This document shows, in pieces, positions 13,382 to 36,542 of a stretch of 64,000 nucleotides of DNA. The notes beneath the pieces were generated by a model. The model searched no databases. It was given only the letters and a program-made list of their open reading frames with translations, and was not told the origin of the DNA. The first letter of the stretch is position 1. Every line of letters starts with the position of its first letter. Both the position numbers and the translations under genes were made by a program. Source of the stretch: Cytophagales bacterium (lineage in GTDB: Bacteria > Bacteroidota > Bacteroidia > Cytophagales > JAHDFW01); the NCBI GenBank assembly GCA_020627945.1, contig JAHDFW010000001.1, positions 5,603 through 69,602 on the forward strand, read 5' to 3'.

Positions 13382-13410
13382 CAGCTTCAATAACATCATT
13401 TAATAGAGTA

Positions 13411-13446: not shown

Positions 13447-13596
13447 TTTCTACCGTTAGAACAAAGTAAAGTTTATGATTGTATAGAAACCAAGGGAAAT
13501 ACAATCGATTAATTGACATCATAATTGGACAATTATATATTATTAAACTTTATATTAATTATATTTAATGCTTTCAAAACTTCCATCGGTCATTTT

Positions 13597-14130
13597 ATGA
13601 AAGGAATTATCCTAAAATCTTATCTTCAACATGTGGAAAACAGCTATGGTATTGAAGTACTTAATTTGGCAATAGATCGCTGCAAACTGGAAAGCGGAGG
13701 GTTGTACATAAACATGCTTACCTACAACGATGAAGAAATCAATTCTTTAATTACAGAAACTTCTTCAATAGTAAATAAATCTGCTAATCAGGTTGAACAA
13801 GAATTCGGAAACCACTTCTTTAACGACTTACTAAATGAATATGGTAGTTATTTCGAGAAATCCAATATGAAGGATTTTATCCACTATTTAAACAACTATA
13901 TACACCCCGAAATTGATTCGTCCATTGATGGAGCAATAACTCCCAAATTTAAACTGGATGAACGTAACGACTATTTTATTTTAACGTATACCAGTGAAAG
14001 AAAAATGTCCTATTTCGCTTTGGGATTACTTTTGGCTTGTAATAATTATTTTGATAATGAATACGAGATCAAATTGTCTGAGATTAGCGGAAAGAATACT
14101 TATTTTGAATTCCATGTATGTCATCAATAG
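13597..14130 (+). CDS. H-NOX (haem NO/O2-binding) sensor protein
   Basis: The protein starts MKGIILKSYLQHVENSYG at the ATG at 13597. A proximal-His context is present (LNNYIHPEI). The haem-propionate motif YxSxR is intact (LTYTSERKMSYFALGLL). The stop overlaps the downstream kinase start by 13 nt. Confidence 0.85.
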   Translation: MKGIILKSYLQHVENSYGIEVLNLAIDRCKLESGGLYINMLTYNDEEINSLITETSSIVNKSANQVEQEFGNHFFNDLLNEYGSYFEKSNMKDFIHYLNNYIHPEIDSSIDGAITPKFKLDERNDYFILTYTSERKMSYFALGLLLACNNYFDNEYEIKLSEISGKNTYFEFHVCHQ

Positions 14131-16478
14131 AGGAGGAATATAGAAAAGCATATCAGCGAGAAAAAAGATATAGAGAAGCTATAGAGCAAATCTTCCATAA
14201 AAAGATTGAAGAACTAACCGCTCAAAACACACAACTTCTTGGAGAAAACGAGCATTATAAGCAGCTTGAATCATTCGAAGCAAACTTTCCCGAAAATTTC
14301 GATTTGACATCGGAAAACCCTTATCCCATAATAAAACTTGACCTCAATCTTAATGTTGTTTATGCTAACACCTCTGGATATCAAATAATAATTGAATATA
14401 ACGGCAACCCGAATACATTCAATATTTTAACCCCAGACCAATTCAACTTCCTACGAAAAGAGCTTCATTTCAGTAAAAAATTACATCTAAAGAAAAGAAT
14501 CTTCGAGCTAAACATTAATCTTTCCAAGAATTCGGAAATTCTAATATTTGCTACGGATATTACCGAAAAAGCAGAAGTAGAATATAAACTAGCTGAGACT
14601 GAAAACACGTATAAAACACTTTTTAAAACCGCTAATGTAATTGTTTACAAAGTTAACTTAGAAGGGAATTTCACACTCATAAACAACAAAACTATTGAAA
14701 TCGTCGAGTATTCGGAATTGGAGTTGTTAAATATGAATTTCATCAATCTTGTTCATCCGGATTCCAGGCGAACTGTTCTTTTACATTATCTCAAGCTAAT
14801 TAGAAGTCGCACCAAATCAAGTTATTTGGAATTCAGATTACTTACCAAATCTGGAAAATCTATTTGGGTGGGGCAAAGTGTTACTCTAAAATTCATGGGC
14901 AATGAATTCACTGAAGCTATTGCCGTTGCTAGAGATATCACTGAGGTAAAAATCAATGAAATAGCATTAAAAAACAGTGAGGAAAAATATCGTAAGACAA
15001 TAGAAAATTTGCATTTCGGACTAATGGAAGTAGATACCAATGAGCATATCCAAAAAGTAAATAATGCTATGATCGATCTTACGGGGTATACCGAAGAAGA
15101 ACTTATAGGCAAGCAACCCTTCCAGTTCCTTCTAACTGATGAATCCAAAAGAGTAATGGAAGAACAAATTACTAACCGCTCTAAAGGAAATTCGAATGCT
15201 TACGAGGTTCAACTAAAACGTAAAGATGGAGCATTACGTTGGGCTATGATTTCGGGAACACCAATATATGATGAAAATAATATAATGATTGGTTCACTAG
15301 GTATCCATGTGGATATTACCGATCAAAAAGAGACGGTAAGCAATTTAAGAATCGCTGAAAACAAAGCTTTGGAATCTTTAAAATCGAAAGAAATTTTCCT
15401 TGCAAAAATGAGTCATGAACTGCGCACACCTTTGAACGCAATTCTTGGATTCTCCGAAATAATCCAAAACAATTATCCTGATAATGTAGAACTCAAAAAT
15501 CAAATTAACCCAGTTTATACTTCTGCTCAGCATTTGCTGAATTTAGTAAACGATTTATTAGACTTCACTAAGTTGAATCAAAGTAAGATCAAACTGGAAA
15601 AGATAGGATTTGATATTTGCAAACTCTCAAAAGAGGTAGAAAATCTATTCAAACAGCCAGCAAACCAGAAAAACATTCAGTTGATTTTCAATTTACCTGA
15701 GAATTCACCTTTCGTTTCTGGAGACCCTACAAGAATAAGACAGATCATCACCAACCTTGTTAGCAACTCTATTAAATTCACACAAGATGGCTATGTGAAA
15801 TTCCACTTAAGCTACGAATCCAAAGGCGATCAAGTTGTGACAAAAATTATGGTTGAAGACTCAGGAATTGGAATAAAACCAGAAAACTTAGAGCGAATTT
15901 TCAAAGAGTTTGAACAAGAAGACATTGGAACAACAAGAAATTTTGGTGGTACTGGGTTGGGTTTACCTATCGTAAAAGGTTTGGTAGATGCTATGAATGG
16001 TTCAATAAAAATACGAAGTGAGTTTGGCTCAGGAACTACGGTTGAGCTTATCATTCCACTACATAAAGCAACAACTCCAAGCGAGAAAACTGTAAGTGAA
16101 GAAATAAACGACCCAAATCAACTACATGGGCATAAAGTTTTAGTTGTAGACGATCACCCATTTAACTTAATGTTGGCGCAGAATATGTTAGAAGCGTTTA
16201 ACGCAGTGCCGACAGTCGTAAGCAGTGGAATTGAAGCAATAGATCGCATTGAAGAAAATTTCGACGTAGTTTTAATGGATATTGAAATGCCTGAAATGAA
16301 CGGGATTGAAACTACAGAAATTATTAAAAGAACTACTCCTAACCTTCCTGTAATTGCAGTTACCGCGGACCTAGTCGGAGGGCATGCTGCTAAAAAAGAT
16401 TTGTTTTCAGGGTTTCTAGCTAAACCTTATAGTGCTGTTGAATTGTACAACATAATAGCCAAAGTTACCCTACAGTAA
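14118..16478 (+). CDS. Hybrid sensor histidine kinase (coiled-coil, PAS repeats, HisKA, HATPase_c, C-terminal REC)
   Basis: H-box MSHELRTPLNAILGFSE. N-box ITNLVSNSIKFT. G-boxes DSGIGI and GGTGLGLPIVK. The receiver is KVLVVDDHPFN...VLMDIEMPEMNG...IAVTAD...LAKP. PAS-like segments are seen (ARDITE, GIHVDITDQK). Confidence 0.9.
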   Translation: MSSIEEEYRKAYQREKRYREAIEQIFHKKIEELTAQNTQLLGENEHYKQLESFEANFPENFDLTSENPYPIIKLDLNLNVVYANTSGYQIIIEYNGNPNTFNILTPDQFNFLRKELHFSKKLHLKKRIFELNINLSKNSEILIFATDITEKAEVEYKLAETENTYKTLFKTANVIVYKVNLEGNFTLINNKTIEIVEYSELELLNMNFINLVHPDSRRTVLLHYLKLIRSRTKSSYLEFRLLTKSGKSIWVGQSVTLKFMGNEFTEAIAVARDITEVKINEIALKNSEEKYRKTIENLHFGLMEVDTNEHIQKVNNAMIDLTGYTEEELIGKQPFQFLLTDESKRVMEEQITNRSKGNSNAYEVQLKRKDGALRWAMISGTPIYDENNIMIGSLGIHVDITDQKETVSNLRIAENKALESLKSKEIFLAKMSHELRTPLNAILGFSEIIQNNYPDNVELKNQINPVYTSAQHLLNLVNDLLDFTKLNQSKIKLEKIGFDICKLSKEVENLFKQPANQKNIQLIFNLPENSPFVSGDPTRIRQIITNLVSNSIKFTQDGYVKFHLSYESKGDQVVTKIMVEDSGIGIKPENLERIFKEFEQEDIGTTRNFGGTGLGLPIVKGLVDAMNGSIKIRSEFGSGTTVELIIPLHKATTPSEKTVSEEINDPNQLHGHKVLVVDDHPFNLMLAQNMLEAFNAVPTVVSSGIEAIDRIEENFDVVLMDIEMPEMNGIETTEIIKRTTPNLPVIAVTADLVGGHAAKKDLFSGFLAKPYSAVELYNIIAKVTLQ

Positions 16479-16623
16479 CCCCTTCTACAAGTTTCTAATT
16501 TGGACAAATTCTCTAAATGAGAATTAAAGATCCGACAAAAACAGTCCTAGTTATGTCTATTAACACATTTAGACATCTGACATGAAATTTGCACTATTAT
16601 TACTTAAAAATAGGATTAAAAAT

Positions 16624-17067
16624 ATGAGAACAGTAATAATAGATGATGACCCGTTTTTCGCAGAGGTATTGGCACAAAAGCTCCGTTCTTTTGGACTTAG
16701 CACTGTTAAAATAGTTTCTAATTTGGACGAGTTAAAAAGAGCAAAAACTAAACCTGAAGTTTTCTTTATTGACTATCATTTAAAACGAGGGAACTGTAAT
16801 AAGTTGATAAGGTATATTGAAAAACAACACTATTCATCCAGTATTATTGTAATGAGTGCCAATAGCAATGCACCTAAGCTACTTGAATCTAAGAATCGTT
16901 ATTATTTCTTTCCTAAATCGAAATTCAGATACCTCAAGTACCAGATATATGATATCAAAGAAAATATTCTGAGAAGACAAAAGGCACAAAACTACATAAA
17001 GGCCATCTATTTTTCCATCATAATAGCAGTAATCTACTTTTGCTTATATTGGTTAATAAATAGTTAA
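16624..17067 (+). CDS. Single-domain response-regulator receiver with C-terminal transmembrane anchor (REC-TM)
   Basis: The receiver residues are present: MRTVIIDDD, FFIDYHL (phospho-Asp), IVMSA and FFPKS. A basic or coiled segment and a terminal TM helix (AIYFSIIIAVIYFCLYWLI) follow. An alternative ATG lies at 16582. There is no output domain. Confidence 0.7.
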   Translation: MRTVIIDDDPFFAEVLAQKLRSFGLSTVKIVSNLDELKRAKTKPEVFFIDYHLKRGNCNKLIRYIEKQHYSSSIIVMSANSNAPKLLESKNRYYFFPKSKFRYLKYQIYDIKENILRRQKAQNYIKAIYFSIIIAVIYFCLYWLINS

Positions 17068-17076
17068 AGTGAGTTC

Positions 17077-17107
17077 GGGATAAGAATTTTATCTGAGTTC
17101 TTATCCC
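17077..17107. terminator. Hairpin between convergent genes (possible bidirectional terminator)
   Basis: A perfect 10-bp stem pairs GGGATAAGAA with TTCTTATCCC, with an 11-nt loop. It sits between the stop at 17067 (+) and the stop at 17164 (-). Confidence 0.55.
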
Positions 17108-17163
17108 TAACCCACGCTAGTTAACTAATTCCTGCAATTCTGGTTGACATACCAGTCTTATTC

Positions 17164-18366
17164 CTATTCTTCATAAAACATTTGAGAATGCTTTTGATGT
17201 GCTAACCCTAAGCTAATCAGCTTGCTATAACTAACCTCCGAAAGCTTACTCCAAACCGAAGTTTTTCTATACTGATAATCAAACATATAGATTAAACTTG
17301 CATATTTCTGGGCAATAACTTCCCAGGTATAACGTCTCATCGCAATTAATTTAAGCTGCTCTCCAAGGACTAACCGTTGCTTATAGGTGTATTGTTGAAG
17401 AAGGGATTTTAGATGAACGGCGTCCTTGAAGAAAACAGCTATATTTTCAGTGGTGGCTCTATTATATGAAACATCGTATGCAAAAATGGGCAACCCTAAA
17501 TACATGGCTTCTACTAGAGAAGGATTTGTACCTCCTGCACTATGTCCATGTATATATAATTGGCAATTACCTCTTAGTAAATCTAATTCACGCTGGTCAT
17601 AAATTGGATCTAATAAAACAATATTTTGGGAGTTGGAATAATCTAAGAAAAGTGCTTCTCCATACGGGCTTGCCGACCAATTACCGACAACTACAATCGG
17701 CATTTCAGAATGTTTATGAAATGCTTCTAATATCACGTGCACGTTATTTTCTGGCTCAATTCGACAAACCTTAAACGCATAAGGTCGTTTTAAAAAATCA
17801 TACTTTTCAAGATCTTCATTCGTAGGCTGAGTTGACATGACATGATCTGCCCCATATTCGATTAGGTGACTTAGGGTCTTATAATTAATAGCCGTATATT
17901 TTTTTATTGCGATGTTATCCGTAATGTCAGCATCGGAAAACTTAACGGCAAGAAACTCCGAAATTTTAAGGAACTTTTGAATAGGCTTGCTCCATTTCTG
18001 ACGTCTCCATTCCAAACCATCTATATTAATAATTATCTTCTTGGAAGTAAACAGCTTCACCAAGGGCAAGATAATACCCCCAGACACTCCTAATACCAGC
18101 AAAGTGTCCGCATAAAACAAAGCATGCAGGATAGAAAGAATATCATAGAGAATACTTGAAGCACCATTTGCATTTAATGGAAGATGAAACAAGCGTGCAC
18201 CCTTCCAGTACTTTTTTCTTTCTGCTTTAGGATAATATTTATTGCTGCAATAGACGTAAAGGTCGAATTCCAGACTTAACTGATTTACTAAGTGATGAAC
18301 CAATGTCTCAAAACCTCCATATCTTGCAGGTACACCTGCAGTTCCAATAATTGCTACTTTTCTCAT
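17164..18366 (-). CDS. Glycosyltransferase with DUF1972 N-terminal domain (GT4-like)
   Basis: The N-terminus MRKVAIIGTAGVPARYGGFETLVHHL is the DUF1972 signature. The C-terminal GT1/GT4 region contains GGTNPSLVEAMYLGLPIFAYD. Confidence 0.8.
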   Translation of the reverse strand: MRKVAIIGTAGVPARYGGFETLVHHLVNQLSLEFDLYVYCSNKYYPKAERKKYWKGARLFHLPLNANGASSILYDILSILHALFYADTLLVLGVSGGIILPLVKLFTSKKIIINIDGLEWRRQKWSKPIQKFLKISEFLAVKFSDADITDNIAIKKYTAINYKTLSHLIEYGADHVMSTQPTNEDLEKYDFLKRPYAFKVCRIEPENNVHVILEAFHKHSEMPIVVVGNWSASPYGEALFLDYSNSQNIVLLDPIYDQRELDLLRGNCQLYIHGHSAGGTNPSLVEAMYLGLPIFAYDVSYNRATTENIAVFFKDAVHLKSLLQQYTYKQRLVLGEQLKLIAMRRYTWEVIAQKYASLIYMFDYQYRKTSVWSKLSEVSYSKLISLGLAHQKHSQMFYEE

Positions 18367-18478
18367 ATCCCTTTATTATTACTTTAGGCCAATTTTATTC
18401 CAACAAGCATAACTACTGATTATCTGCACTTTACAAAAACAAATCTCTAAATCCATTCTCAAATCGAGACTCATTTAC

Positions 18479-19594
18479 TCAAATCTGCACTGAGCTTCGA
18501 TCAAATACAACACCTAAAATATTTTTACTAAAAGTGGAAAAGTCAAATTCTCCTGAACGCAACTTAGACATAGAAGAAAACCTTCTATACAAAGACTGAT
18601 TTACCATTAGGTTAAAAACTACCTTTTCCAGCTTACTTGAATTTCGACTATCCACACACTGACCAAACAAATTGTCTCCAACGAGTTCTTTAACACCTCC
18701 TACTGGCGGTACAACTACCGGAATTCCATAGCTCATAGCTTCCAAAACTGTCATTCCAAATGTCTCTACCCATTCATCTGGTTTTGATAAATTAAGCACC
18801 ACACTTGCCCGTTTATAAAACCGATGAACATCATTTTGAGCAGGGTAAATAAAAAGGTTCTCGGGAAGATCCTTCCCTGCAAAAAAGAAATCTAACTCAT
18901 TTCGGGATGCATTTAACACCAATTCAAATTTCATATATGGAAACGTAAAGGCTAGATTTACAAACTCATTGACCCCCTTATATCCTTTTAGCGAACACAA
19001 CATTAGCACATAAAAATCTCCTCTTCTAGTAGCTAAATGATTTCTACTTTTATTAAAAAACTCTGGGGAAAGACAGTTATATACTACTTTATTATTCACC
19101 TTTTTTAGCGCTTCATGTTGCAACGCATATTTGGAAACGTAAACTGCCGTGCTCGCACAATAGTTAGCCACTAACTTTAAAAACCATTTAAACATTAGAG
19201 GTCGTATTGATGTTTCATGAATATGATAAACCACCTTCTTATTCATAAACTTTCCAGCGAGCGCCGCTCCAAAAGGAAGCAGCGTATTCACATAAATAAT
19301 TACATCTTCATTTCGATATGAAAAGAGCTTAAAAAACAATTGAAACTGACTAATCAACAAGTTGATGAAAGTAACGAGCTTAAAACGCTCACTTCTTCGA
19401 TAATCAAAATAATTAAGATCAGCTTCTTTTATGTCAGATAAGAAACCTCCATGCCGACTCTTTGAGGTAAACACCTGGACTGGCACTTGCTTATCCAACA
19501 AACTTTTTATCACGTAGGAACCTACTTTAGGGCTACCACTATAATCATCTTTTAAATGTGCAAATAGAACTTTAGGAGTCGATATATTCATCAT
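18479..19594 (-). CDS. Glycosyltransferase family 4
   Basis: The EX7E-type motif region is ETFGMTVLEAMSYGIPVVVPPVGGVKELV. The fold length is GT-B-like. Confidence 0.8.
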   Translation of the reverse strand: MMNISTPKVLFAHLKDDYSGSPKVGSYVIKSLLDKQVPVQVFTSKSRHGGFLSDIKEADLNYFDYRRSERFKLVTFINLLISQFQLFFKLFSYRNEDVIIYVNTLLPFGAALAGKFMNKKVVYHIHETSIRPLMFKWFLKLVANYCASTAVYVSKYALQHEALKKVNNKVVYNCLSPEFFNKSRNHLATRRGDFYVLMLCSLKGYKGVNEFVNLAFTFPYMKFELVLNASRNELDFFFAGKDLPENLFIYPAQNDVHRFYKRASVVLNLSKPDEWVETFGMTVLEAMSYGIPVVVPPVGGVKELVGDNLFGQCVDSRNSSKLEKVVFNLMVNQSLYRRFSSMSKLRSGEFDFSTFSKNILGVVFDRSSVQI

Positions 19595-19615
19595 TTTTTG
19601 ATTTATGCTAAATGG

Positions 19616-20884
19616 TTAAACAATGGGTTGTGGAACTTCAGAACGGAAAAGAGATTGATAAACAGAAGACAACAATTCTCCTCTCACATTCCATTCAAAA
19701 TTTTGAGTAAACAAAGCTTTGGAAGATTTTGAGTAACGTTCAAGCTCCCATCGATTTCTGTATAAACAATTTAAAGAAGTCGAAAACTGATTTATACACC
19801 TATGATATTGACTATAGGGAACTTTTACTCCAACATCGCTGGTAACAAACTCTCCAGGGCCGTAATTGTCAAAACAAAGAATTGGAAGTCCTGCAGACAT
19901 GGCTTCGGCTACGACCATTCCTGCTCCTTCATGGGACGGAAATAAAAAAACATGTGAATTACTGTAAATTTGCTTAAGTTCTTCCCTTTTAACCCATGAT
20001 ATAATTGTAATCGCGTCCTCCAGCTGCATTTCCGAGATAAGTTTACGCAACTTAGGCTCTTCAGGACCTTTACCCACCAACGTTAGATGTGGCCGTTTAC
20101 TACTTCGGCCGTTTACCACACCGTTATAAAACTTAGCAAATGCCTTAATAGTAATATCAAAGCCCTTAAGCGGCACAAATCGCCCTACAGAAAGTACATG
20201 AAACTCAGCTTTCGTAGAAGTGGAAGTGGATGCTGCCATACTATCAGAAGCTACAGATGGCATCCGAATTTCCTTCTCGCCTATGTTATAGATCTTATCC
20301 TTTACAGAGGAATTCATCGTAAGAATGACATCTGAGTTCAATTTGGTAAGCCAAAGTAGCGGACTAATCTTCCATGCATAACACTTAACCATCCACTTAA
20401 GACGATCTTGTATGTACGTTTTCATTCCATAAATCGGAAGAACAAATGCTTTAGGAATTTTCGGATGATGACCTATCGGTCCCCAAACTTTAGGTTTTCG
20501 TAGCAACCAAAGAAATGAAGGAGTCCAATCATTATGAAAGTTTAGATTATGAACAATATCAAACCTAAGATTCGATGATTTAACTTTCGCAATTAAGAAA
20601 AGTTGCCAAAAAAAGTAATAAACTAATGCACCTCTCTCTCCTTTTTTCCAAAACCTCATCCAGTATGGCAAATCAAAATAAACAAAACTCATGGAAGCAT
20701 ATAGCGAACTAGGATGCTCCTTCATATATTTTTCAATATGCTCTCTATTATTTTTGCGGGTTAACAATATTACGTTTTGAAATCTAGCAATCTGTAAAGC
20801 AAAATTCCAACCCATACCATCTTCTGATCCTTTGAATGGATTCATGGCATATGCCGTAGCTAAAACCGTTATTTTATGATTCAT
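19616..20884 (-). CDS. Glycosyltransferase family 4
   Basis: The sequence contains PSHEGAGMVVAEAMSAGLPILCFDNYGPGEFV. The length is GT-B-like. Confidence 0.8.
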   Translation of the reverse strand: MNHKITVLATAYAMNPFKGSEDGMGWNFALQIARFQNVILLTRKNNREHIEKYMKEHPSSLYASMSFVYFDLPYWMRFWKKGERGALVYYFFWQLFLIAKVKSSNLRFDIVHNLNFHNDWTPSFLWLLRKPKVWGPIGHHPKIPKAFVLPIYGMKTYIQDRLKWMVKCYAWKISPLLWLTKLNSDVILTMNSSVKDKIYNIGEKEIRMPSVASDSMAASTSTSTKAEFHVLSVGRFVPLKGFDITIKAFAKFYNGVVNGRSSKRPHLTLVGKGPEEPKLRKLISEMQLEDAITIISWVKREELKQIYSNSHVFLFPSHEGAGMVVAEAMSAGLPILCFDNYGPGEFVTSDVGVKVPYSQYHRCINQFSTSLNCLYRNRWELERYSKSSKALFTQNFEWNVRGELLSSVYQSLFRSEVPQPIV

Positions 20885-20908
20885 TAAATTCTTATTATTG
20901 GTTAATAC

Positions 20909-21625: not shown

Positions 21626-21670
21626 TGTAATCTTGGTAATAAGGTTGTAGTTAAATTCTTAATGCATTAC

Positions 21671-24409: not shown

Positions 24410-24459
24410 ATTTAGATATTAGTATGCTTTAAAATTTTCTCTATAAGAAACTAGGATTC

Positions 24460-25749: not shown

Positions 25750-25757
25750 GGATAGTT

Positions 25758-26870: not shown

Positions 26871-28126
26871 AGATTTTTAACTTTATGATTAATAGAAAAG
26901 AAGAAGTAGCTCTGGAATATCAGCTGATTGGCAATTAGGCCAAGTACAACTCCAGATATTCCAAATTGGATCAATATGGGCTTAGCAAATAGAAGGCTAA
27001 AAACTGCACCCAAAATGTAGGCTATGAAGAGTGGTCTTGTATGCTCTAGGGTTCTTAATAAAAACCTCAAATTAATTCCTACATAAATAAGTACGTATAA
27101 AATTGAGTAACCAACAAATTGATTTCCATAACTCATTAATTCTTTAGAAAAGAAAAATCCTAAAAGCCATTCTCCGTAAAAAGTAAAGAAACACCCTATC
27201 AGAGCAGTCGCAATCGTACCCACCACAACAATTCTTAAAATAAATTTCTTTAACGCTTTCCAACCTGAATCAAAAAGAATCTTGCTTGCGCGAATTGGCG
27301 TATAATTTTCCGCTGCCAAGAAAAGTACATTCAAGACCCCTATTAAATTTTGAATCATTCTAATGGCACCAACAGCGACTGAGCCAAGTACTCCTCCTGC
27401 CACAATTATGAAAAAATTACCTGAGCACCATTGCAAAATAGAAGTCCCCAACAACCATTTTGAATATAACCAATGACGATAAGTTGCTTCTAGAAAAGAA
27501 GGCATATCTACCTTTAATCCAAACCATAATTTCCAGCGATATAAAACCCCTATCCCCTGAAGCCCAACTAGCATTAGAATCACTTGAAAAAGTTCTATTT
27601 TAGAATTAAGAATACCAATTAAACCCAAAGCCAAGAGTTGTCCTCCATATACAATCAAATCTAATTTGGCTGCTTCGAATGAATTACCAGATGCATAACT
27701 CAACTTACGTTGAAACTGTACAGTAAGAAATGTAAAAACAGCTAATTGTAATACAATACCAACTTTAATATCTAGAGTGCCAGGTAAATATTGGTTGCCA
27801 TACACCCAAATAAAAAGCCAAAGCAAAACTGACGTAACGAATACAAATGAGATATGCATTAAGCTCAATTGTTTGATATAATCATGCTTCTGCTTCAATT
27901 CCAGCTTTGGCATAAAGGTATACATTGGTGCTACAATTAAGCTTTCATGCAAACTCCCGAAAAACAATACAATCAGCCAAAGCAATGTAAAATCGCCATA
28001 CAACTCTAATCCCAACTGTTTTACTAAAAAAACTCCTAAAACAAAACTAGTCCCACTTACCAAAGCTTGATCGCCAAGCGTAATCAATTGAGGATATCTT
28101 CTAATATATCTGACTAATTTATACAT
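26867..28126 (-). CDS. Polysaccharide flippase (Wzx-like, MOP superfamily)
   Basis: It is a 419-aa polytopic membrane protein with about 12 TM helices. It begins ...LITLGDQALVSGTSFVLGVFLVKQLG, which is typical of Wzx. It sits inside the polysaccharide operon. Confidence 0.75.
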   Translation of the reverse strand: MYKLVRYIRRYPQLITLGDQALVSGTSFVLGVFLVKQLGLELYGDFTLLWLIVLFFGSLHESLIVAPMYTFMPKLELKQKHDYIKQLSLMHISFVFVTSVLLWLFIWVYGNQYLPGTLDIKVGIVLQLAVFTFLTVQFQRKLSYASGNSFEAAKLDLIVYGGQLLALGLIGILNSKIELFQVILMLVGLQGIGVLYRWKLWFGLKVDMPSFLEATYRHWLYSKWLLGTSILQWCSGNFFIIVAGGVLGSVAVGAIRMIQNLIGVLNVLFLAAENYTPIRASKILFDSGWKALKKFILRIVVVGTIATALIGCFFTFYGEWLLGFFFSKELMSYGNQFVGYSILYVLIYVGINLRFLLRTLEHTRPLFIAYILGAVFSLLFAKPILIQFGISGVVLGLIANQLIFQSYFFFSINHKVKNL

Positions 28127-30398
28127 GATTGAACCTTACTAATTTGGTTAAGCCGTTTATAAGTTTTTTTAACCTGGAATTATTGATATTATATAACCCA
28201 CTTAGGTTAGTACTTTTACTTGTACCATTGAGAACGAGTTTGATATTCGTTATCTTAAACTCTTGAGCAATATAATCTGGATAGGATAAGTATTTGGAAG
28301 GTGTGAAATTCGATCGCACCAAATAAAAACTATGGTCACAGGACTTCATAACCTGCAATACTTCTGGGTTAGACAGCAACATTGGAAGATCAATAATTAC
28401 CAGATCAAAGTTTTGTTTTAGTTCATATAACAAGTGACTCAGTTTTTCCACAAACAAAGAATCTATTTCTGTTCTCCCAGTTAATTGTAATTCATACAGG
28501 CCTGTGCTTTCATTTTTACGTAGTTGTTTCTGCCAATCAAATGTTGAATAACGTATGTCAAAATTTTGGTCTTCTAAATTGCCTTTGATTAAAGGATCAA
28601 CACTCAGAAATAATACAGTCCATCCTGTCCGTAGAAACGATTGACAAAGACCATTTGAAAAATACGTTTTACCTTCTTTTTCCATTCCAGAGGTTATAGC
28701 GATGCTTTGATTTTTCTGAATTCCATTCAACTTACAGAGTGTATTAAACTGATCGAATTGTCTCTGCTTCACTTGGTTATTTTTAGCCCAAGGAAGAACT
28801 CCAAGTACATGTTGTTGCGTATATTTCTCGAGTTCATTACGAGTATCAACCTTGGCCATCAACATAGATTTCAAGAAGACTATACTTACCCCCAGCAGCA
28901 ATCCAATAAAACCGGCCACAATCAACAACAATGATTTTTTAGGAGAAGCTGGGGTAGATGGAATTGTGGCCTGTTGAATTATCCTGTGAAATGCAATATT
29001 AGATGCTTCGGAAATTGCCGCTTCAGTACGTTTCTCGGCCAGAAAATTGAACATCTTTTGGTTTAGCTGAAATTCCCTTTCCAAAATCACCATCTGCTTT
29101 TCTTTCGTAGGTAATCCCTCAAAGGTCTTTTGAGCAAGAACAATCGTCTCTTCAATTTCACCTCGTTTGATACGTAGACTATTTCTGGTATTATGAATAC
29201 TTTCACGTATGTAGTCGGTCAGATCTTTTATTTTTTCATCAATCAATTTAACTTGCTTCTCCTCCTTGGTATACTTCAAAAGCAAGTCTTTCTTTTCGGC
29301 TTGATACATTTTGATCTTCTTAATCAATTCGGTTGAAAGTAAATCATTGAATGCTTCAAAATTTGGAGCTAACTGAAGAAACTCTTTATCCTCATCATCA
29401 ACATACTTAACTAATGAATCTAAGGAGGCCAGATTCATATCTAAGTTGGCTAATTGAATTTTTAGTTGTGCAATCTTGCGGAGTTCTGTTTCAGTTTCTT
29501 GCCGGGTATTAATGATATTATTCTTAAGACGGTAATCCTCTATTTTCCCTTCAGATTCGCGAAGCTTCTTAGAAACTTGCTCCAGTTGCCCATCAATAAA
29601 GTCCACCGTACGACCAGCAGCATTGCTCCTTGTATTGATGTAATCCTCAATATAAATTTTGGTTAAAGTATTTAGTAAATCGGCAGTCTTTTCTGGCACT
29701 TCAGATTTATATGAAACACGAATTACAGGCACATCTTTTTCTACAGCAACTACATCCAATCGACTCGCAACACGCTCCTTAAGGTCTTGAGGATCATTAA
29801 AAATTGTAAGGTATTGATCCTCCAACTGAAAGTTTGGTACGGCGGCAATAATAGAATCAGCTTTAACGACACTAAACTTCCAATTATTAACCACATAATC
29901 TTCCCCAAAAACTCCACTAAAAGCCGCATTATGAAACGTGAAAGGAAATAAAATTGTATAATTCTCATCACTCAGCACATCTATTCGAATCTCCTTATTA
30001 ATCAAAGAACTTGGGATGTTTTCGCTCTTAAATTCAAACGGTTTATTATGATACAACTCTTGAGTTCGAATAACACCAACTCTATAATATGAAGTACCAA
30101 AATCTAATTCTTCTAAAGCTTTTCCAATTAGCAATGATGATTTTAGAAGTTCAACTTCGCCAGCAATCTTATTCACATTAGAAAAGAGATCAAAATCCTT
30201 ATACAAGGTAGCGCTAGATGGTCCCTGACCCAGGTCATCTAGCTTAATTTTAACTGTACTTTCGAATTGCAATGGAGTGTATCTTATTACTCGCAAAGCA
30301 ATTAGTACAGCTATTAAAACACTGGCTAATACTACCAACCACCCACCCCGACGAAATGGTTTAATAATACGCGATATATCCTGCTTTTCTTCTAACAT
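28119..30398 (-). CDS. Polysaccharide co-polymerase / chain-length determinant with degenerate BY-kinase-like C-terminal domain (Wzc/GumC-like)
   Basis: It has an N-terminal TM, then a Wzz-like coiled-coil periplasmic region, then a second TM (LLLIVAGFIGLLLGVSIVFL). The C-terminal P-loop is ITSGMEKEGKT and the Walker B-like motif is LVIIDLPML. There is no C-terminal Tyr cluster. Confidence 0.8.
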   Translation of the reverse strand: MLEEKQDISRIIKPFRRGGWLVVLASVLIAVLIALRVIRYTPLQFESTVKIKLDDLGQGPSSATLYKDFDLFSNVNKIAGEVELLKSSLLIGKALEELDFGTSYYRVGVIRTQELYHNKPFEFKSENIPSSLINKEIRIDVLSDENYTILFPFTFHNAAFSGVFGEDYVVNNWKFSVVKADSIIAAVPNFQLEDQYLTIFNDPQDLKERVASRLDVVAVEKDVPVIRVSYKSEVPEKTADLLNTLTKIYIEDYINTRSNAAGRTVDFIDGQLEQVSKKLRESEGKIEDYRLKNNIINTRQETETELRKIAQLKIQLANLDMNLASLDSLVKYVDDEDKEFLQLAPNFEAFNDLLSTELIKKIKMYQAEKKDLLLKYTKEEKQVKLIDEKIKDLTDYIRESIHNTRNSLRIKRGEIEETIVLAQKTFEGLPTKEKQMVILEREFQLNQKMFNFLAEKRTEAAISEASNIAFHRIIQQATIPSTPASPKKSLLLIVAGFIGLLLGVSIVFLKSMLMAKVDTRNELEKYTQQHVLGVLPWAKNNQVKQRQFDQFNTLCKLNGIQKNQSIAITSGMEKEGKTYFSNGLCQSFLRTGWTVLFLSVDPLIKGNLEDQNFDIRYSTFDWQKQLRKNESTGLYELQLTGRTEIDSLFVEKLSHLLYELKQNFDLVIIDLPMLLSNPEVLQVMKSCDHSFYLVRSNFTPSKYLSYPDYIAQEFKITNIKLVLNGTSKSTNLSGLYNINNSRLKKLINGLTKLVRFNHV

Positions 30399-30403
30399 TC
30401 GGT

Positions 30404-31147
30404 TTATCTATTAATAAGTGAAACAAGAATTGCTATAGCCGTGGCTACACTTGTAAATGGAATAAGAGTCGGTGCTTTTTTATCTATTACTTTTCCTCCT
30501 CTACATGGTATATAAATAACATCATTTGGGTATATCAAAATAGGGGCTCCGCTTTGAATTTTGGTTAAATCAAACGTCATCAAACTATCTCCGCGCCTAA
30601 TAGTGGCTTTCTTCTTATTTGCATAAAATGTAAGTCCTCCACTTTTAGAAAGGGCTTCCATCAAAGTGTTTTTTTCTTTTTCAAGAAGTAGGGTGCCAGG
30701 GTTATTTACCTCGCCTAAAACAGACACTTCCTTGTTCAAAACCTTCACCACAATAATGGGCTCTACTAAGTATTTTGAATAATACCTGGTTAATGTATCT
30801 GCTGCCTCGCGTTCAGTTAGGTGTTCAATCGAAACTCTACCTATCTTTGGGAGCATAATTTGTCCTTTTGAATCCACCATCACCCATTTTCCATATACCT
30901 CATTCGAATTATAAATCCCAAAAAGGGATCCTATGCTCATTTCGTCATTCCCCCAGATACTTACGCTAACCTTGTCATCAACTGAAATTTTATAATTACA
31001 GAATGATGAATCACTTTGCAAAACACTAACGGGAGAATAGTTGCGATTTGCTTCAAATAGGTTTTGAGTTCGACAAGAAAAAAGGCTAAAGGCCAATAAT
31101 AAGATTATCAAACGTAAACTATAGGTCGTTAATTTATCTCGCATCAT
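30404..31147 (-). CDS. Polysaccharide export outer-membrane protein (Wza-like: Poly_export + SLBB)
   Basis: It has a lipoprotein-like signal (LLAFSLFSC). The pattern YKISVDDKVSVSIWGNDE...GQIMLPKIGRVSIEHLTEREA...VSVLGEVNNPG is typical of Poly_export/SLBB domains. Confidence 0.8.
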   Translation of the reverse strand: MMRDKLTTYSLRLIILLLAFSLFSCRTQNLFEANRNYSPVSVLQSDSSFCNYKISVDDKVSVSIWGNDEMSIGSLFGIYNSNEVYGKWVMVDSKGQIMLPKIGRVSIEHLTEREAADTLTRYYSKYLVEPIIVVKVLNKEVSVLGEVNNPGTLLLEKEKNTLMEALSKSGGLTFYANKKKATIRRGDSLMTFDLTKIQSGAPILIYPNDVIYIPCRGGKVIDKKAPTLIPFTSVATAIAILVSLINR

Positions 31148-31150
31148 GAC

Positions 31151-31639
31151 TTACGCAAAAACAATAAGACCCAACAAAACTCCGACTATGCTAAAAAACA
31201 CTATTGCTATCAATAGAGCATTACGATTACGATTACGAAGTTTGCGCTTTAGTAAGTTATTGATTCTATTCATTCGTGAAATCTTATCCGCAATAACCTG
31301 AAGGCCTGCCTCACTCTTCTCTATATAATCGAAAGCACCAAATTTTAAGCTCTTTACAGCAACATCCATCTTTCTCTGCCCTGAAACAAGTAGCACATGA
31401 ATATTTGGATTAAATGCTTTTATTTTTTTCAAGACATCAAGCCCGTTTATTTCCCCATCTAAAAAATAATCCAGTACAATAATATCCGGCATTTTAAATA
31501 GAGCATTAATGCATTCAGCTCCAGTGGTAAATAGTTCAACTCTTTTGTGACCATTATAGAAGAGTTCGTTTTTAATATACTCCTGATAATTTAGGTCGTC
31601 TTCTACAATATAAATTAATGGTGAATTAGCTGTTTTCAT
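31151..31639 (-). CDS. Single-domain receiver with C-terminal transmembrane anchor (REC-TM), first gene of the polysaccharide operon
   Basis: The receiver residues are present: LIYIVEDD, IIVLDYFLDGEINGLDVL (phospho-Asp), VLLVSGQ and DYIEKS. A basic stretch KRKLRNRNRN and a terminal TM helix (ALLIAIVFFSIVGVLLGLIVFA) follow. Its stop lies 3 nt before the wza-like start. Confidence 0.8.
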   Translation of the reverse strand: MKTANSPLIYIVEDDLNYQEYIKNELFYNGHKRVELFTTGAECINALFKMPDIIVLDYFLDGEINGLDVLKKIKAFNPNIHVLLVSGQRKMDVAVKSLKFGAFDYIEKSEAGLQVIADKISRMNRINNLLKRKLRNRNRNALLIAIVFFSIVGVLLGLIVFA

Positions 31640-31648
31640 ATATCATAC

Positions 31649-31708
31649 TTAATGGTTACAGCATCTAATTCAATAAACACACCTAAACCATTAAATACTG
31701 ATTATCAA
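31649..31708 (-). promoter_or_regulatory. Leader/operator-like region of the polysaccharide operon (inverted repeat plus motifs shared with 32652-32699)
   Basis: A 9-bp inverted repeat, TTAATGGTT (31649-31657) and AACCATTAA (31686-31694), ends 9 nt before the ATG. The 10-mers accattaaat (31687-31696) and tgattatcaa (31699-31708) recur upstream of the REC-Hpt genes. Confidence 0.3.
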
Positions 31709-31788
31709 TTCATTACACATCTCAACAACAAAACTTATGTCCAGAAAAGAAACTGTTTTCTCGATTTGAGAAAACAAGGGTGATTGGT

Positions 31789-31841
31789 AATTAAATAAAA
31801 ACTCCAAAGACTCGAAGTGTAAACCTTGTCGTCTTTGGAGT
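31789..31841 (-). terminator. Rho-independent terminator after the Hpt gene
   Basis: A perfect 11-bp stem pairs ACTCCAAAGAC with GTCTTTGGAGT, with a 19-nt loop. On the minus strand it is followed by TTTTATTTAA. Confidence 0.65.
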
Positions 31842-31890
31842 TAATCCTTTTATTAAGTTAACGTGAGTTCGGATTAAGCTATAGTTACAG

Positions 31891-32235
31891 CTATTTAAAT
31901 TTTAGCAATATATCATCAAAAACCGCAATATAAGATTGTTCAATATTTCTTAGCAGGTGATCCATTCCAGCGTCCGATTCATTTTTGCATAAAGCCTGAA
32001 CTTGTGTAAGACTCTTGATCACCTCTTCCATCTGCAATACTTCCGTGGACGGTTTCAACCTGTGTATAGCAGAATGGATCGTATTATAATCTCGTTGTTC
32101 AAATGCTGCTCGAATCTTGTCTATACTTTTGGAAGATTCGGTTACAAACATAAAGGCCATGCGTTTCACAAAGTCACTATTACCTCGCGACATTTCTTCA
32201 AGATTCTCTAAGCTATAAGTTTCTGAGTTATTCAT
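31891..32235 (-). CDS. Histidine phosphotransfer (Hpt) domain protein
   Basis: It is a 114-aa helical protein with the Hpt-like motif HSAIHRLKPSTEVLQMEEV (H-x-x-K). Its start overlaps the upstream REC stop by ATGA. Confidence 0.75.
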   Translation of the reverse strand: MNNSETYSLENLEEMSRGNSDFVKRMAFMFVTESSKSIDKIRAAFEQRDYNTIHSAIHRLKPSTEVLQMEEVIKSLTQVQALCKNESDAGMDHLLRNIEQSYIAVFDDILLKFK

Positions 32236-32633
32236 GCAGCATTTGATGATTGTTGGATTCGTTTAATTGTAGCGATGATCTTATCACTGATCCAGTTAAT
32301 ATTATCTGACTTTAGAAAATAATCTAGACCTCTAAATTTACGATAATCATCTAAAATGCCAATGCGATGATTATCTGAACAAAGTATTACTGGAATATCG
32401 AAAGTTTCTTCAAAAAGACTCACCGCCTCGTGACCATTCAAAATATATTGGTCTCTTCCATTCCATTTAAAATCAAGAATTATTAAGTCTGGGGTTACTT
32501 CCATTTTATGCAATAATTCTAATGAGTGTGAGAATTGAGTCAAATGAATGTCGTGCGGTAATAATGTTTTTTCTAATTGTGACATCAACGAATTGTCTTG
32601 GTCAACGATGTAAATGTTACTGATCTTTTTCAT
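32232..32633 (-). CDS. Stand-alone response-regulator receiver domain protein
   Basis: The receiver residues are present: NIYIVDQD, LIILDFKW (phospho-Asp position), VILCSD and DYFLKS. There is no output domain. Confidence 0.75.
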   Translation of the reverse strand: MKKISNIYIVDQDNSLMSQLEKTLLPHDIHLTQFSHSLELLHKMEVTPDLIILDFKWNGRDQYILNGHEAVSLFEETFDIPVILCSDNHRIGILDDYRKFRGLDYFLKSDNINWISDKIIATIKRIQQSSNAA

Positions 32634-32651
32634 GGCTATAATATTTTATTT

Positions 32652-32699
32652 ACCATTAAATCCAAAATCCAACCAAACAAACTAAGTGTTGATTATCAA
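32652..32699 (-). promoter_or_regulatory. Upstream region of REC-Hpt genes carrying the two 10-mers shared with 31687-31708
   Basis: accattaaat lies at 32652-32661 and tgattatcaa at 32690-32699. The second sits within the perfect palindrome GTTGAT-T-ATCAAC at 32688-32700. Confidence 0.3.
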
Positions 32700-32764
32700 C
32701 TATTTACAATCAAACACCTTTAACAATCATTCTAATAATTGGAATGATTTCTCATATAGAGAAT

Positions 32765-34123
32765 TTAAACCTCTCCCCTCTTAATCATTTTATACAACGT
32801 GGATTTACCTATATCTAGTTTTTCAGCAACTAGTGCCACATCATTATCATACTTTTCTAAATAATGCTGAATTATGCGGTTTGTAAACTCTTTTAAGGTT
32901 ACGTCTTCGCTCATAAAATCACGGATACTACCTGTAGAATTAAAAGTGATGTCAGAAGCCTGTATTTCTTGCTCATCTGATAATACTATTGCCAACTCAA
33001 TCAACGATTTCAGTTCTCGAACATTACCAGGATATGCGTGAGTAAGCAATTTCTGTTTTGCTTCTTCGGATAGGCTTTTAACTTTCTTCTTGTTCTCCTT
33101 GCAAAAACTGTCGATAAAGAATTTTGCCAGAATCAGAATATCTTCCTTACGCTCTCGAAGAGGTGGCATTTTTACAGGTAAGCCCAATAATCTAAAATAC
33201 AAATCTTCTCTAAAGTTTCCATTCCGAACTTCCTCGGCCAAATCTTTATGAGTTGCAACAATTAAGCGCACATCAATTTCTTTGGTTTTATTACTTCCTA
33301 CTGGTGTTACCTCGCGTTCTTGTAAAACTCTTAATAATTTTGCCTGCATGGTAGGGTCCATATCGGCAATCTCGTCTAAAAATAAAGTTCCCTTGTGCGC
33401 TTCTTCGAACTTACCTATTCTCTTAGCAACAGCGCCAGTGAATGCCCCTTTTTCATGACCAAAAAGTTCGCTCTCAACTAAATCTTTTGGTATTGCAGAC
33501 ATATTCACTGCCACTAAGGATTTTTTCTTTCGAGGTGAATTATAATGAATGCATTTAGCGACTAATTCTTTACCCGTGCCCGTTTCGCCAGTAACCGACA
33601 CAGTAATATTATTATCACAGGCCTTATTCATCAGTTTAAATACTGACTTAATCGCCGCACTATTCCCCTTTATAGCATCTTCAAAATCATACTTCTGAAC
33701 AAGTTGTTCTTTCAAATTCTCAACTTGCTCTTTTAACTCCTCATGTTCTCTAATATTTAGTATAGACTTCCATAATCGATCTTTGGTATCATGGTCCTTT
33801 ACTAAATAGTCCTTTACCATATCCTCTTTTAGAAAATCGATGGCAATTTTCACATCATTCTGACCAGAGATAAGAATAATTGGTAATGCTGGATTGGTTT
33901 TTTGCAACTTTTTGAGCAAGTCACCACCATTCATATCAGGAAGTTCATAGTCCAAACAAACAACATCTGGTCGTCGATGCAAGTTGTCTAAGCAGTCTTT
34001 AGCAGTTGTAAATTTTTCAATTACATAATCGGGGTTTAAGGAAAGATGATACTCTAGGATATCTGCGAACCAAACATCATCTTCTACCAAAAATATTAGA
34101 AAGGAATTAGATTTTACCGGCAT
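32765..34123 (-). CDS. Sigma-54-dependent transcriptional activator (REC, AAA+ and Fis-type HTH; NtrC family)
   Basis: The REC domain has FLVEDD and VCLDYELPDMNG. Walker A is GETGTGKELVAKCIH. ESELFGHEKGAFTGA carries an intact GAFTGA loop. The sequence also contains LFLDEIADM and RVLQEREV. The C-terminal HTH is LDIGKSTLYKMIKR. Confidence 0.92.
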   Translation of the reverse strand: MPVKSNSFLIFLVEDDVWFADILEYHLSLNPDYVIEKFTTAKDCLDNLHRRPDVVCLDYELPDMNGGDLLKKLQKTNPALPIILISGQNDVKIAIDFLKEDMVKDYLVKDHDTKDRLWKSILNIREHEELKEQVENLKEQLVQKYDFEDAIKGNSAAIKSVFKLMNKACDNNITVSVTGETGTGKELVAKCIHYNSPRKKKSLVAVNMSAIPKDLVESELFGHEKGAFTGAVAKRIGKFEEAHKGTLFLDEIADMDPTMQAKLLRVLQEREVTPVGSNKTKEIDVRLIVATHKDLAEEVRNGNFREDLYFRLLGLPVKMPPLRERKEDILILAKFFIDSFCKENKKKVKSLSEEAKQKLLTHAYPGNVRELKSLIELAIVLSDEQEIQASDITFNSTGSIRDFMSEDVTLKEFTNRIIQHYLEKYDNDVALVAEKLDIGKSTLYKMIKRGEV

Positions 34124-36529: not shown

Positions 36530-36542
36530 TGTTATCTGTAAG

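Follow-up and report, generated by a model that had tools for sequence, protein, structure and literature searches.

A rearranged copy of a Bacteroidota gene cluster that probably links an H-NOX sensor to Wzy-type polysaccharide export

We analysed a 64-kb stretch of DNA from a Cytophagales bacterium (contig JAHDFW010000001.1; the whole stretch is referred to as the window) that encodes an H-NOX haem sensor and its hybrid histidine kinase, a free-standing histidine phosphotransfer (Hpt) protein next to a sigma-54-dependent bacterial enhancer-binding protein (bEBP), and, between these two signalling modules, genes for polysaccharide synthesis and export. Sequence comparison makes it likely that this locus is a rearranged version of a conserved Bacteroidota cluster in which H-NOX would control Wzy-type polysaccharide export through a multi-step phosphorelay. 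A first-pass annotation of the window had joined the same elements (hnoX and kinase, Hpt–receiver–bEBP, polysaccharide operon) into one phosphorelay. Linkage in other genomes and the homology of the Hpt favour that proposal; the novelty claimed for it does not survive comparison with Vibrio.

Domains were called with Pfam profiles at curated cut-offs in every open reading frame (ORF) of at least 100 amino acids (aa) across the window, with NCBIfam as a second library. Our ORF list reproduced all coordinates and strands given by the first-pass annotation, and Pfam bore out its domain calls for the signalling genes and most polysaccharide genes. No signalling protein of the window has an above-cut-off equivalog in NCBIfam. 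The window has a GC content of ~35% and contains type IX secretion system (T9SS) cargo genes, features that place it in Bacteroidota. An H-NOX alignment was scanned against 185,579 species genomes, which returned 80 loci with at most 37% identity to the window H-NOX; ORFs were called in these loci and searched with the window proteins. Fifteen of the 80 carry a bEBP gene directly upstream of hnoX and co-directional with it, and are referred to as core loci.

The hnoX–kinase pair, the Hpt–receiver–bEBP group and the wza/wzc operon, whose co-occurrence the first-pass annotation had put forward as a test, are contiguous or adjacent in relatives, with the polysaccharide genes co-directional, convergent or, as in the window, split. 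About 19 other loci, mostly from Bacteroidota, place an orthologous bEBP gene beside hnoX and a hybrid kinase gene; a kinase gene follows hnoX in 73 of the 80 loci. The bEBPs of the core loci are 47–59% identical to that of the window, and all other bEBPs in the 80-locus set reach 38% or less. Core loci include those of Crocinitomix algicola, C. catalasitica and metagenome-assembled genomes (MAGs) of Flavobacteriales, Crocinitomicaceae, Salibacteraceae and Chitinophagaceae. Ten of them continue co-directionally into a small ORF ('X'), a receiver (REC) gene with or without a transmembrane helix (REC(-TM)), and genes for Wza (35–54% identity), Wzc (32–37%), a wzx-like protein (26–35%), a GT4 glycosyltransferase (39–46%) and Wzy (36–44%); from REC(-TM) to Wzy, this is the gene order of the window. 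Three other core loci end at a contig boundary, one (L062) is unclassified, and in L008 a glycosyltransferase operon that runs convergently takes the place of these genes. Of the 15 H-NOX and bEBP loci that are long enough to judge, 14 have adjacent polysaccharide genes.

We also identified bEBP homologues of 60–72% identity, among them five at 67–69% (L087, L088, L093, L094 and L095). In the complete genome of 'bacterium SCSIO 12741' (L088, bEBP 67%), genes for bEBP, HNOB, an HNOBA-kinase-Hpt protein, REC, Wza, Wzc, a 412-aa protein, GT4 and Wzy follow one another in the same direction. L087 (bEBP 67%) and L095 (68%) have the order bEBP, REC (130 aa), HNOB and kinase-Hpt. Convergent with this unit, L087 carries genes for a receiver (161 aa), a priming glycosyltransferase, a DUF1972 glycosyltransferase (63.5% identical to its window counterpart), two GT4 proteins (49% and 54%) and an acetyltransferase (71%), which correspond to the tail of the window operon. 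In L092, REC, Wza, Wzc, a 411-aa protein, GT4 and Wzy run convergently with bEBP, HNOB and kinase-Hpt. L093 (bEBP 69%) has bEBP, REC (131 aa) and a 256-aa REC-Hpt protein, and L094 (68%) has bEBP, REC and an Hpt-containing protein, followed at some distance by REC and a different Wzy/Wzx exopolysaccharide (EPS) operon.

The H-NOX proteins of L087, L088, L092 and L095 belong to a 'MYGIV...' class that is paired with HNOBA kinases and is ~25% identical to the 'MKGII' class of the window. Two H-NOX subfamilies thus occupy the same slot of the module.

A MAG labelled Arenicella sp. (Gammaproteobacteria; L027, 3217–15040) contains the whole cluster of the Bacteroidota type. Its bEBP has 52% identity to that of the window, and the locus also has additional receivers, three palindromes of the type described below, and a degraded second kinase that leaves a 188-aa REC and an 83-aa Hpt overlapping by 4 nt. 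This cluster reflects either a mis-binned contig or horizontal transfer. In two Bacteriovoracaceae MAGs (L019 and L037) and in L052, hnoX and a gene for a 424–435-aa kinase have a sigma-54 response regulator gene beside them or close by, encoded on the other strand, so that neighbouring H-NOX and bEBP genes are not confined to Bacteroidota and Vibrio.

The free-standing Hpt of the window (31891–32235, minus strand) scores 28.3 bits against Pfam Hpt (cut-off 24.6). Its H58 lies in the motif HRLKPS, with proline where the HxxKG-like motif usually has glycine. As the first-pass annotation had stated, it is the only Hpt: no other ORF of 100 aa or more in the 64 kb encodes such a domain. In most relatives the Hpt is instead a fused C-terminal kinase domain that follows the receiver, and the window Hpt matches the post-REC C terminus of the H-NOX-linked kinases in eight core loci with 27–43% identity, as well as Hpt regions in L087, L088, L093 and L094. 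Pfam confirms an Hpt domain in the C-terminal extension of the L020 kinase. Judged by these alignments, the free-standing Hpt and the Hpt domain fused to H-NOX-linked kinases are homologues. It scores 57–58 bits against the Hpt of the MYGIV lineage and at most 52 bits against that of MKG-class kinases.

The Hpt gene overlaps by ATGA a gene for a divergent stand-alone receiver (32232–32633, minus strand; REC 25.3 bits, below the cut-off of 30.2) that has retained D11/D13, D54, S86 and K108. Its orthologues are the 129–155-aa receivers that follow the bEBP in L087, L093, L094 and L095 (E 1e-10 to 1e-13). Two other relationships were considered and rejected. The protein is not a relic of the kinase's own receiver, as its best matches are receivers of the REC-TM and bEBP type and not those of kinases. 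Nor is it the homologue of the ORF 'X' protein (~128 aa), as a hidden Markov model of 11 X proteins gave no significant match to it (E 0.11).

The adjoining gene (32765–34123, minus strand) encodes the bEBP, a sigma-54 enhancer-binding response regulator with a receiver (D58), a Sigma54_activat AAA+ domain (230 bits; Walker A 179–186, GAFTGA 226–231, D250-E251) and a Fis-type helix-turn-helix, HTH_8, that scores slightly below its cut-off (20.8 versus 22 bits) and has the recognition helix GKSTLYKM. With REC, an AAA+ domain bearing GAFTGA and Walker A and B motifs, and a C-terminal helix-turn-helix, its predicted architecture is that of the NtrC family. The genes for Hpt, stand-alone REC and bEBP share the minus strand with the polysaccharide operon, from which a 251-nt gap (31640–31890) divides them.

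The sensor gene, hnoX (13597–14130, plus strand), encodes an H-NOX haem sensor of the MKGII class that matches Pfam HNOB (PF07700) over residues 2–159 of 177 (111 bits, cut-off 25.5; E 6e-32). H103 (the proximal histidine), P116, and Y131, S133 and R135 (the YxSxR haem-propionate motif) show no variation when the protein is aligned with its nearest homologues. O2-binding H-NOX proteins carry tyrosine at position 140, and in Caldanaerobacter H-NOX this distal Y140 stabilises O2. The window protein has phenylalanine (F140) in the alignment with Kordia algicida H-NOX and, with no distal-pocket tyrosine at 140, appears from its sequence to fit the nitric oxide (NO)-selective subtype. K. algicida H-NOX is also its closest match in the PDB (6BDE/6BDD, E 8e-18, full length). 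The nearest homologue outside the source genome (P0002, 39% identity) occurs on short contigs only, where hnoX and kinase adjoin polA, and is uninformative on linkage.

The hybrid kinase gene (14118–16478, plus strand) shares 13 nt with hnoX (ATGTCATCAATAG); this overlap and the ATGA overlap between REC and Hpt genes, both claimed by the first-pass annotation, are real in the sequence. The kinase contains a coiled coil, two PAS domains, HisKA (H433), HATPase_c and REC (D721), has no predicted transmembrane (TM) segment, is thus cytoplasmic, and lacks an Hpt domain of its own. Its N box (at 546), G1 box (581) and G2 box (611) are intact. Its best matches are H-NOX-linked kinases of core loci (32–39% identity). 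By sequence, the kinase would be placed with the HnoK/HahK/HqsK type, as a soluble protein with intact H, N and G boxes and a receiver aspartate whose gene overlaps hnoX.

Two further receivers have a C-terminal TM helix. REC-TM_A (16624–17067, plus strand; Pfam REC 34 bits, D64 as numbered from 16582, TM helix 141–159) directly adjoins the kinase gene on its 3' side, on the same strand. Its ORF is open from 16582, and ATG 16624 (MRTVIIDDD) is the likelier start because of the geometry of the promoter element at 16578–16593 (described below). REC-TM_B (31151–31639, minus strand; D57, TM helix 142–160) is the first gene before wza and is 35–46% identical to the gene directly before wza in relatives. 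The system therefore has five receivers; the first-pass annotation, which had overlooked REC-TM_A, counted four. All phospho-acceptors are intact: H433 and D721 of the kinase, H58 of the Hpt, D54 of the stand-alone REC, D57 of REC-TM_B, D64 of REC-TM_A and D58 of the bEBP.

The polysaccharide genes (18479–31147, minus strand) encode, from low to high coordinate, two GT4 glycosyltransferases, a hexapeptide acetyltransferase, a 912-aa protein, a Wzy_C protein, a third GT4, a 'wzx-like' protein, a Wzc-like polysaccharide co-polymerase (PCP) and Wza, with intergenic distances of −8 to 50 nt. Wza (Poly_export and SLBB), PCP/Wzc and a Wzy polymerase, by which a Wzx/Wzy cluster is recognised, are all present. 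The genes for Wza, Wzc, wzx-like, GT4_a and Wzy are collinear with those of relatives (26–54% identity). The window Wza is short (247 aa), and the Wzc-like PCP has Wzz, GNVR and a P-loop (GMEKEGKT) and is without a C-terminal tyrosine-rich tail. The first-pass call of a wzx-like protein (26867–28126) stands insofar as this is a polytopic membrane protein with ~10–12 hydrophobic segments whose position is kept in relatives; it matched neither the MOP/Polysacc_synt family nor any other Pfam or NCBIfam family. Pfam detected no priming phosphoglycosyl transferase (Bac_transf or Glycos_transf_4) in 17164–31639; L087 and L094 do carry a priming transferase in their clusters.

The last gene of the cluster (17164–18366, minus strand) encodes a DUF1972/GT4 glycosyltransferase; L087 has a gene of 63.5% identity in the corresponding place. 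The first-pass annotation had described one uninterrupted minus-strand operon; its gene set and strand hold, and the last gene lies behind a 112-nt gap with a promoter-like element of its own.

The 912-aa protein (21671–24409, minus strand) has a short APH-like stretch (residues 330–390) and a P-loop (~704–741). It has no sequence relative in the PDB and no NCBIfam family, and an 886-aa counterpart occupies the same operon position in L090.

A 15-bp palindrome, TTCTC-N5-GAGAA, has exactly three exact copies in the 64 kb (0.21 expected), all in intergenic gaps of the signalling genes. One, TTCTCTAAATGAGAA (16509–16523), lies in the kinase/REC-TM_A gap, 30 nt after the kinase stop, and is a candidate upstream activating sequence for the bEBP. 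The second, TTCTCGATTTGAGAA (31758–31772), lies in the Hpt/REC-TM_B gap with its centre 126 nt upstream of REC-TM_B. The third (32749–32763) is the exact member of a tandem, TTCTCTATATGAGAA and the imperfect TTCCAATTATTAGAA, that occupies 32730–32763 between bEBP and stand-alone REC. A one-mismatch copy, GTCTCGATTTGAGAA on the minus strand (18456–18470), stands in the 112-nt gap before the DUF1972 glycosyltransferase gene, and the homologous gap of L087 contains the exact TTCTCCAATAGAGAA.

The element recurs in relatives, where the post-kinase gap carries TTCCC-N5-GGGAA at the position held by 16509–16523 in the window. With one mismatch allowed, 22 intergenic copies were found in the 262 kb of core-locus DNA versus 2 in the 1.10 Mb of the other 65 H-NOX loci, and at least six loci have copies upstream of bEBP. 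In relatives, a sigma-54-like element (TGGCAY-N5-nnG[C/T/A]) starts 69–71 nt after the palindrome, or 88–90 nt where the palindrome is doubled. In 12 relatives and three window sites the −24 element keeps this fixed offset and lies 36–45 nt before the start codon; in the 12 loci of relatives, the whole element ends 37–45 nt before the next start.

Three of the four palindrome sites in the window precede −24/−12-like elements with the geometry of relatives. Upstream of REC-TM_A, TGACATGAAATTTGCA (16578–16593, plus strand) follows the palindrome start by 69 nt and precedes ATG 16624 by 43 nt. Upstream of the DUF1972 glycosyltransferase gene, TGGAATAAAATTGGCC (18387–18402, minus strand) is 68 nt beyond the palindrome, with ATG 18366 a further 36 nt on. 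The weaker TGGTTGGATTTTGGAT (32660–32675, minus strand), with GA instead of GC at −12, has distances of 88 nt from the preceding palindrome and 42 nt to the ATG, a geometry that matches L020 and L038, which also have doubled palindromes. No Sigma54 factor (rpoN) domain was found in the 64-kb window, the one contig covered.

The CTC variant of the palindrome is also used in L087 and L088. In the three loci of the CTC class, the recognition helix of the bEBP has the sequence GKSTLYKM, and in 16 of 16 loci of the CCC class it is GKST[I/L/V]YRM; this co-variation of K/R in the helix with the central palindrome base is what would be expected if the bEBP binds the palindrome. We rejected the idea that the palindromes are, in general, mere terminators: most have no U-tract, different genomes preserve the sequence itself as well as its capacity to pair, bEBP genes also have copies upstream, and the −24 spacing is fixed. 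The copy at 31758–31772 is an exception: it forms part of an extended stem (31753–31777) and does look terminator-like.

ORF 'X' (~125–135 aa; L009, L011, L013, L014, L020, L029, L030, L038, L041, L044 and L008) is the first gene after the kinase (for example, L020:12983–13366), behind a sigma-54-like promoter and before REC-TM. Its members share the motifs FW, (I/V)(I/V)(V/I)DFYF and LSP; they have no Pfam match and no detectable similarity to window proteins.

We propose that the H-NOX would bind a diatomic gas, most probably NO, and so modulate autophosphorylation of the kinase; by analogy with every characterised H-NOX/kinase pair, the ligand-bound sensor would inhibit it. Phosphoryl groups may pass from H433 to D721 within the kinase, then to H58 of the free Hpt, and from there to the terminal receivers, namely the bEBP (D58), REC-TM_A, REC-TM_B and the soluble divergent REC. 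The phosphorylated bEBP would bind TTCTC-N5-GAGAA and open −24/−12 promoters ~70–90 nt downstream. Candidate targets are the promoters before REC-Hpt (a possible feedback), before REC-TM_A and before the last glycosyltransferase, and less clearly those of REC-TM_B–wza–wzc and the remaining genes. The REC-TM proteins probably exert their effect at the membrane, perhaps as phosphate sinks or as direct modulators of Wza/Wzc.

The split layout suggests a deletion. The window order bEBP, REC, Hpt equals the L087/L095 order without the segment from HNOB through the kinase receiver; a unit of bEBP, REC, hnoX and kinase-REC-Hpt may thus have lost its sensor and kinase part and kept REC and Hpt. L093, still with a REC-Hpt protein, looks like an intermediate of such a deletion. 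A block of MKG-class hnoX, kinase, operator with promoter, and REC-TM_A, devoid of an Hpt and resembling the 5' part of the Crocinitomix-type cluster, lies at the operon tail.

Several observations weigh against H-NOX control of the polysaccharide genes through this relay. Close bEBP homologues also occur with a PAS kinase that is not H-NOX-linked, as in Pontibacter (L089, bEBP 61%), where bEBP is followed by PAS-kinase-Hpt and Wza and Wzc lie 6 kb away, or with no sensor in view, as in L093, L094 and L091 (bEBP, REC-TM and Wza through Wzy, no H-NOX in view). The sensor is thus exchangeable, and other kinases could feed the window Hpt. The window hnoX–kinase pair is also not closest to the pair found in the genomes with the closest bEBP and glycosyltransferases. 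At the promoters, the −12 'GC' is kept in only about half of the sites (GC, GT or GA), and one window site reads GA at −24. A strict sigma-54 consensus (TGGCAC-N5-TTGC, at most two mismatches) is not enriched in the window (32 matches versus 33.7 expected); in the key gaps, only the element at 16578 was matched, and the other promoters are visible only by comparison with relatives. No convincing −24/−12 element was found in the gap upstream of REC-TM_B (31640–31890). A strong terminator-like hairpin with a U-tract (31793–31840, minus strand; hairpin 31802–31840, −19.3 kcal/mol, z −4.35, 0 of 200 shuffles folding as well) follows the Hpt gene and parts the polysaccharide operon from the REC-Hpt unit. 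Finally, the co-variation of helix and site amounts to a single evolutionary event.

The exchange of sensors, together with the different class of the window H-NOX and kinase, could mean that the modules are adjacent without being wired together, with bEBP–REC–Hpt and the operon fed by a different hybrid kinase from elsewhere in the genome and the hnoX–kinase pair signalling only to REC-TM_A or to unlinked partners. This seems improbable, given that the hybrid kinase has no Hpt and 31891–32235 is the sole Hpt in 64 kb, that the kinase/REC-TM_A gap has the same palindrome variant and promoter geometry as the bEBP-side gaps, that H-NOX of either class is linked to the bEBP/polysaccharide module in ~19 loci, and that the top matches of the kinase come from H-NOX/bEBP/polysaccharide clusters.

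The same relay might also carry a different signal, with the H-NOX reporting O2, CO, haem redox state or thiol oxidation. V. cholerae H-NOX performs haem-free Cys/Zn redox sensing, and H-NOX groups without the proximal histidine exist (reviewed in PMC8738867). The two PAS domains of the kinase may bring additional inputs. The window protein itself has the proximal H103, P116 and the YxSxR motif, has phenylalanine at 140 where Caldanaerobacter H-NOX has its O2-stabilising tyrosine, and has K. algicida H-NOX as its best structural relative, so that a signal other than NO has, in our view, a small chance of being the principal one.

A mainly post-translational output, with REC-TM gating Wza/Wzc export or polymerisation and the bEBP controlling small regulatory genes and one glycosyltransferase only, would suit the lack of a good −24/−12 element upstream of REC-TM_B, the terminator after the Hpt gene, the invariable position of REC-TM directly before wza and the precedent of a second, post-transcriptional response regulator, SypE, in V. 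fischeri (PMC12369376), but is quite unlikely, as relatives have the palindrome and a −24/−12 promoter directly before an X/REC-TM/wza unit with gaps of only 10–36 nt between genes, and the window, too, retains a palindrome 126 nt from where REC-TM_B starts, as would be expected.

The phosphorelay that we favour has precedents, of which the first-pass annotation knew none for capsule or EPS control. In V. fischeri, the hybrid kinase HahK, for which D506 is essential, is inhibited by HnoX with bound NO (PMC12369376); its signal reaches SypG and the syp locus by way of LuxU or the Hpt of SypF (PMC12369376, PMC8738867). H-NOX/HqsK of V. harveyi and V. parahaemolyticus likewise relies on LuxU, whose phosphorylation is inhibited by NO-bound H-NOX (PMC8738867, PMC12369376). 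The logical design, from H-NOX through hybrid kinase and Hpt to the regulator of an EPS locus, was thus already known from V. fischeri. We found no description of the Bacteroidota H-NOX/bEBP/polysaccharide cluster in full-text literature searches, and the H-NOX neighbourhood analysis in a review does not mention it (PMC8738867).

As in V. fischeri, hnoX of the window shares an operon with the gene for a hybrid kinase that depends on a separate Hpt, and in both systems the Hpt leads, as proposed here for the window, to a DNA-binding regulator of a polysaccharide synthesis and export locus; V. fischeri adds a post-transcriptional response regulator. The two differ in phylum, and the window bEBP is only 37–38% identical to Vibrio SypG-like proteins versus 50–72% to Bacteroidota relatives. 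The polysaccharide genes are not syp orthologues (for example, Wza has 247 aa and SypC 700 aa), and the window has neither a STAS protein (SypA) nor a SypE-type protein. In the window, sensor, relay, regulator and operon are physically clustered with a defined palindrome, and the accessory receivers are membrane-anchored single domains. The low bEBP identity, the different structural genes and the absence of STAS and SypE proteins thus argue for an analogue, not a member, of Vibrio Syp.

Five Vibrio species of the Halioticoli clade (V. superstes, V. breoganii, V. halioticoli, V. inusitatus and V. comitans; L049, L063, L065, L068 and L069) have hnoX and a gene for a 571-aa hybrid kinase directly upstream of a syp-like cluster (~10001–19600) of STAS, OmpA-like, 704-aa Wza-like, BY-kinase-like, 146-aa ORF, LuxO/SypG-like bEBP and GT4 genes. 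Here hnoX and polysaccharide genes are physically linked, which parallels the genetic link known in V. fischeri.

Other known systems share fewer features. The V. harveyi and V. parahaemolyticus circuits resemble that of the window in that H-NOX regulates a hybrid kinase/phosphatase, HqsK, which phosphorylates a free-standing Hpt, LuxU, that in turn feeds LuxO, but their output is quorum-sensing small RNAs and not a linked polysaccharide operon, and LuxU is shared with other kinases. The HnoX–HnoK systems of Shewanella and V. cholerae (PMC8738867) also pair H-NOX with an adjacent histidine kinase and have a biofilm phenotype; their outputs act on cyclic di-GMP, whereas the window and the core clusters lack GGDEF, EAL and HD-GYP domains and have a bEBP and output-less receivers. 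The first-pass annotation had likewise reported no GGDEF, EAL or HD-GYP gene, and none turned up among the window ORFs of 100 aa or more. It had also known of no characterised H-NOX circuit in Bacteroidota. The structure of H-NOX from the flavobacterium K. algicida, which has the proximal histidine, YxSxR motif and Phe 140 in common with the window protein, has been solved (6BDD/6BDE); this is an isolated sensor characterised by structure, and no description of a downstream circuit was found in the literature searched.

In PEP-CTERM/XrtA EPS loci (PrsK-PrsR; TIGR02915, TIGR03007), a sigma-54 response regulator adjoins a Wza/chain-length-determinant EPS locus, and the window proteins match the corresponding NCBIfam models below threshold (bEBP 340 bits versus a cut-off of 503; Wzc-like 115 versus 279). 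No exosortase or PEP-CTERM protein was seen in the window analysis, and we know of no H-NOX input to PrsK-PrsR systems.

NO-controlled biofilm switching is well studied in Proteobacteria, and Bacteroidota dominate particle and algal-surface communities. We found no such work on Bacteroidota in the literature searched. The recruitment of two H-NOX subfamilies and the persistence of linkage through co-directional, convergent and split layouts argue for selection on gas-regulated polysaccharide production. As a tentative extension, which may well prove too broad, the cluster could be a self-contained 'NO-to-slime' cassette carried by many marine and aquatic Bacteroidota with either H-NOX class, in which one Hpt would serve two levels of output: a sigma-54 activator with a 15-bp operator and REC-TM proteins that dock on Wza/Wzc. 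If this were true, membrane-anchored REC-TM proteins docking on Wza/Wzc would represent a class of output that is new to both H-NOX signalling and capsule control. The cluster is a compact, testable circuit of sensor, kinase, Hpt, activator, operator, promoters and target operon, and it is present in cultured strains, including Crocinitomix catalasitica ATCC 23190, C. algicola and 'bacterium SCSIO 12741'. The pairing of operator and recognition helix (K with TTCTC, R with TTCCC) offers a directly testable specificity code.

The window contains further genes with possible links to gas or redox sensing. A protein with a NIT (nitrate/nitrite-sensing) domain and a methyl-accepting chemotaxis protein (MCP) signalling domain (53869–55743, minus strand) is another possible nitrogen-oxide sensor. 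Its gene adjoins those for an unassigned 377-aa protein (52652–53785, minus strand) and a YfiR/HmsC-like protein (52093–52578, minus strand), and the group is flanked by two AhpC/TSA peroxiredoxins. An MbnP-like protein is encoded beside a di-haem cytochrome c peroxidase/MauG-family protein (61535–63478, minus strand).

Upstream of the bEBP gene, a terminator-like hairpin (34282–34312, minus strand; 14 pairs and a T-tract) separates the cluster from extracytoplasmic function (ECF) sigma factor and VWA genes. The region beyond it (34367–37785) encodes a 720-aa vWF_A/VWA/YfbK_C protein and an ECF sigma factor, with a second, divergent ECF sigma factor at 37225–37785; the closest relatives hold a gene for a ~2,180-aa FG-GAP/UnbV_ASPIC protein at this position. 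A homologue of SiaC-family regulatory phosphoproteins is encoded at 6542–6907 (minus strand; E 4e-24), and none of its partners SiaA, SiaB and SiaD was recognised in the neighbouring ORFs. A divergent pair of REC-LytTR response regulator and TPR-HisKA_2-HATPase kinase genes (41163–43766) contributes a sixth receiver to the window and is probably a separate two-component system.

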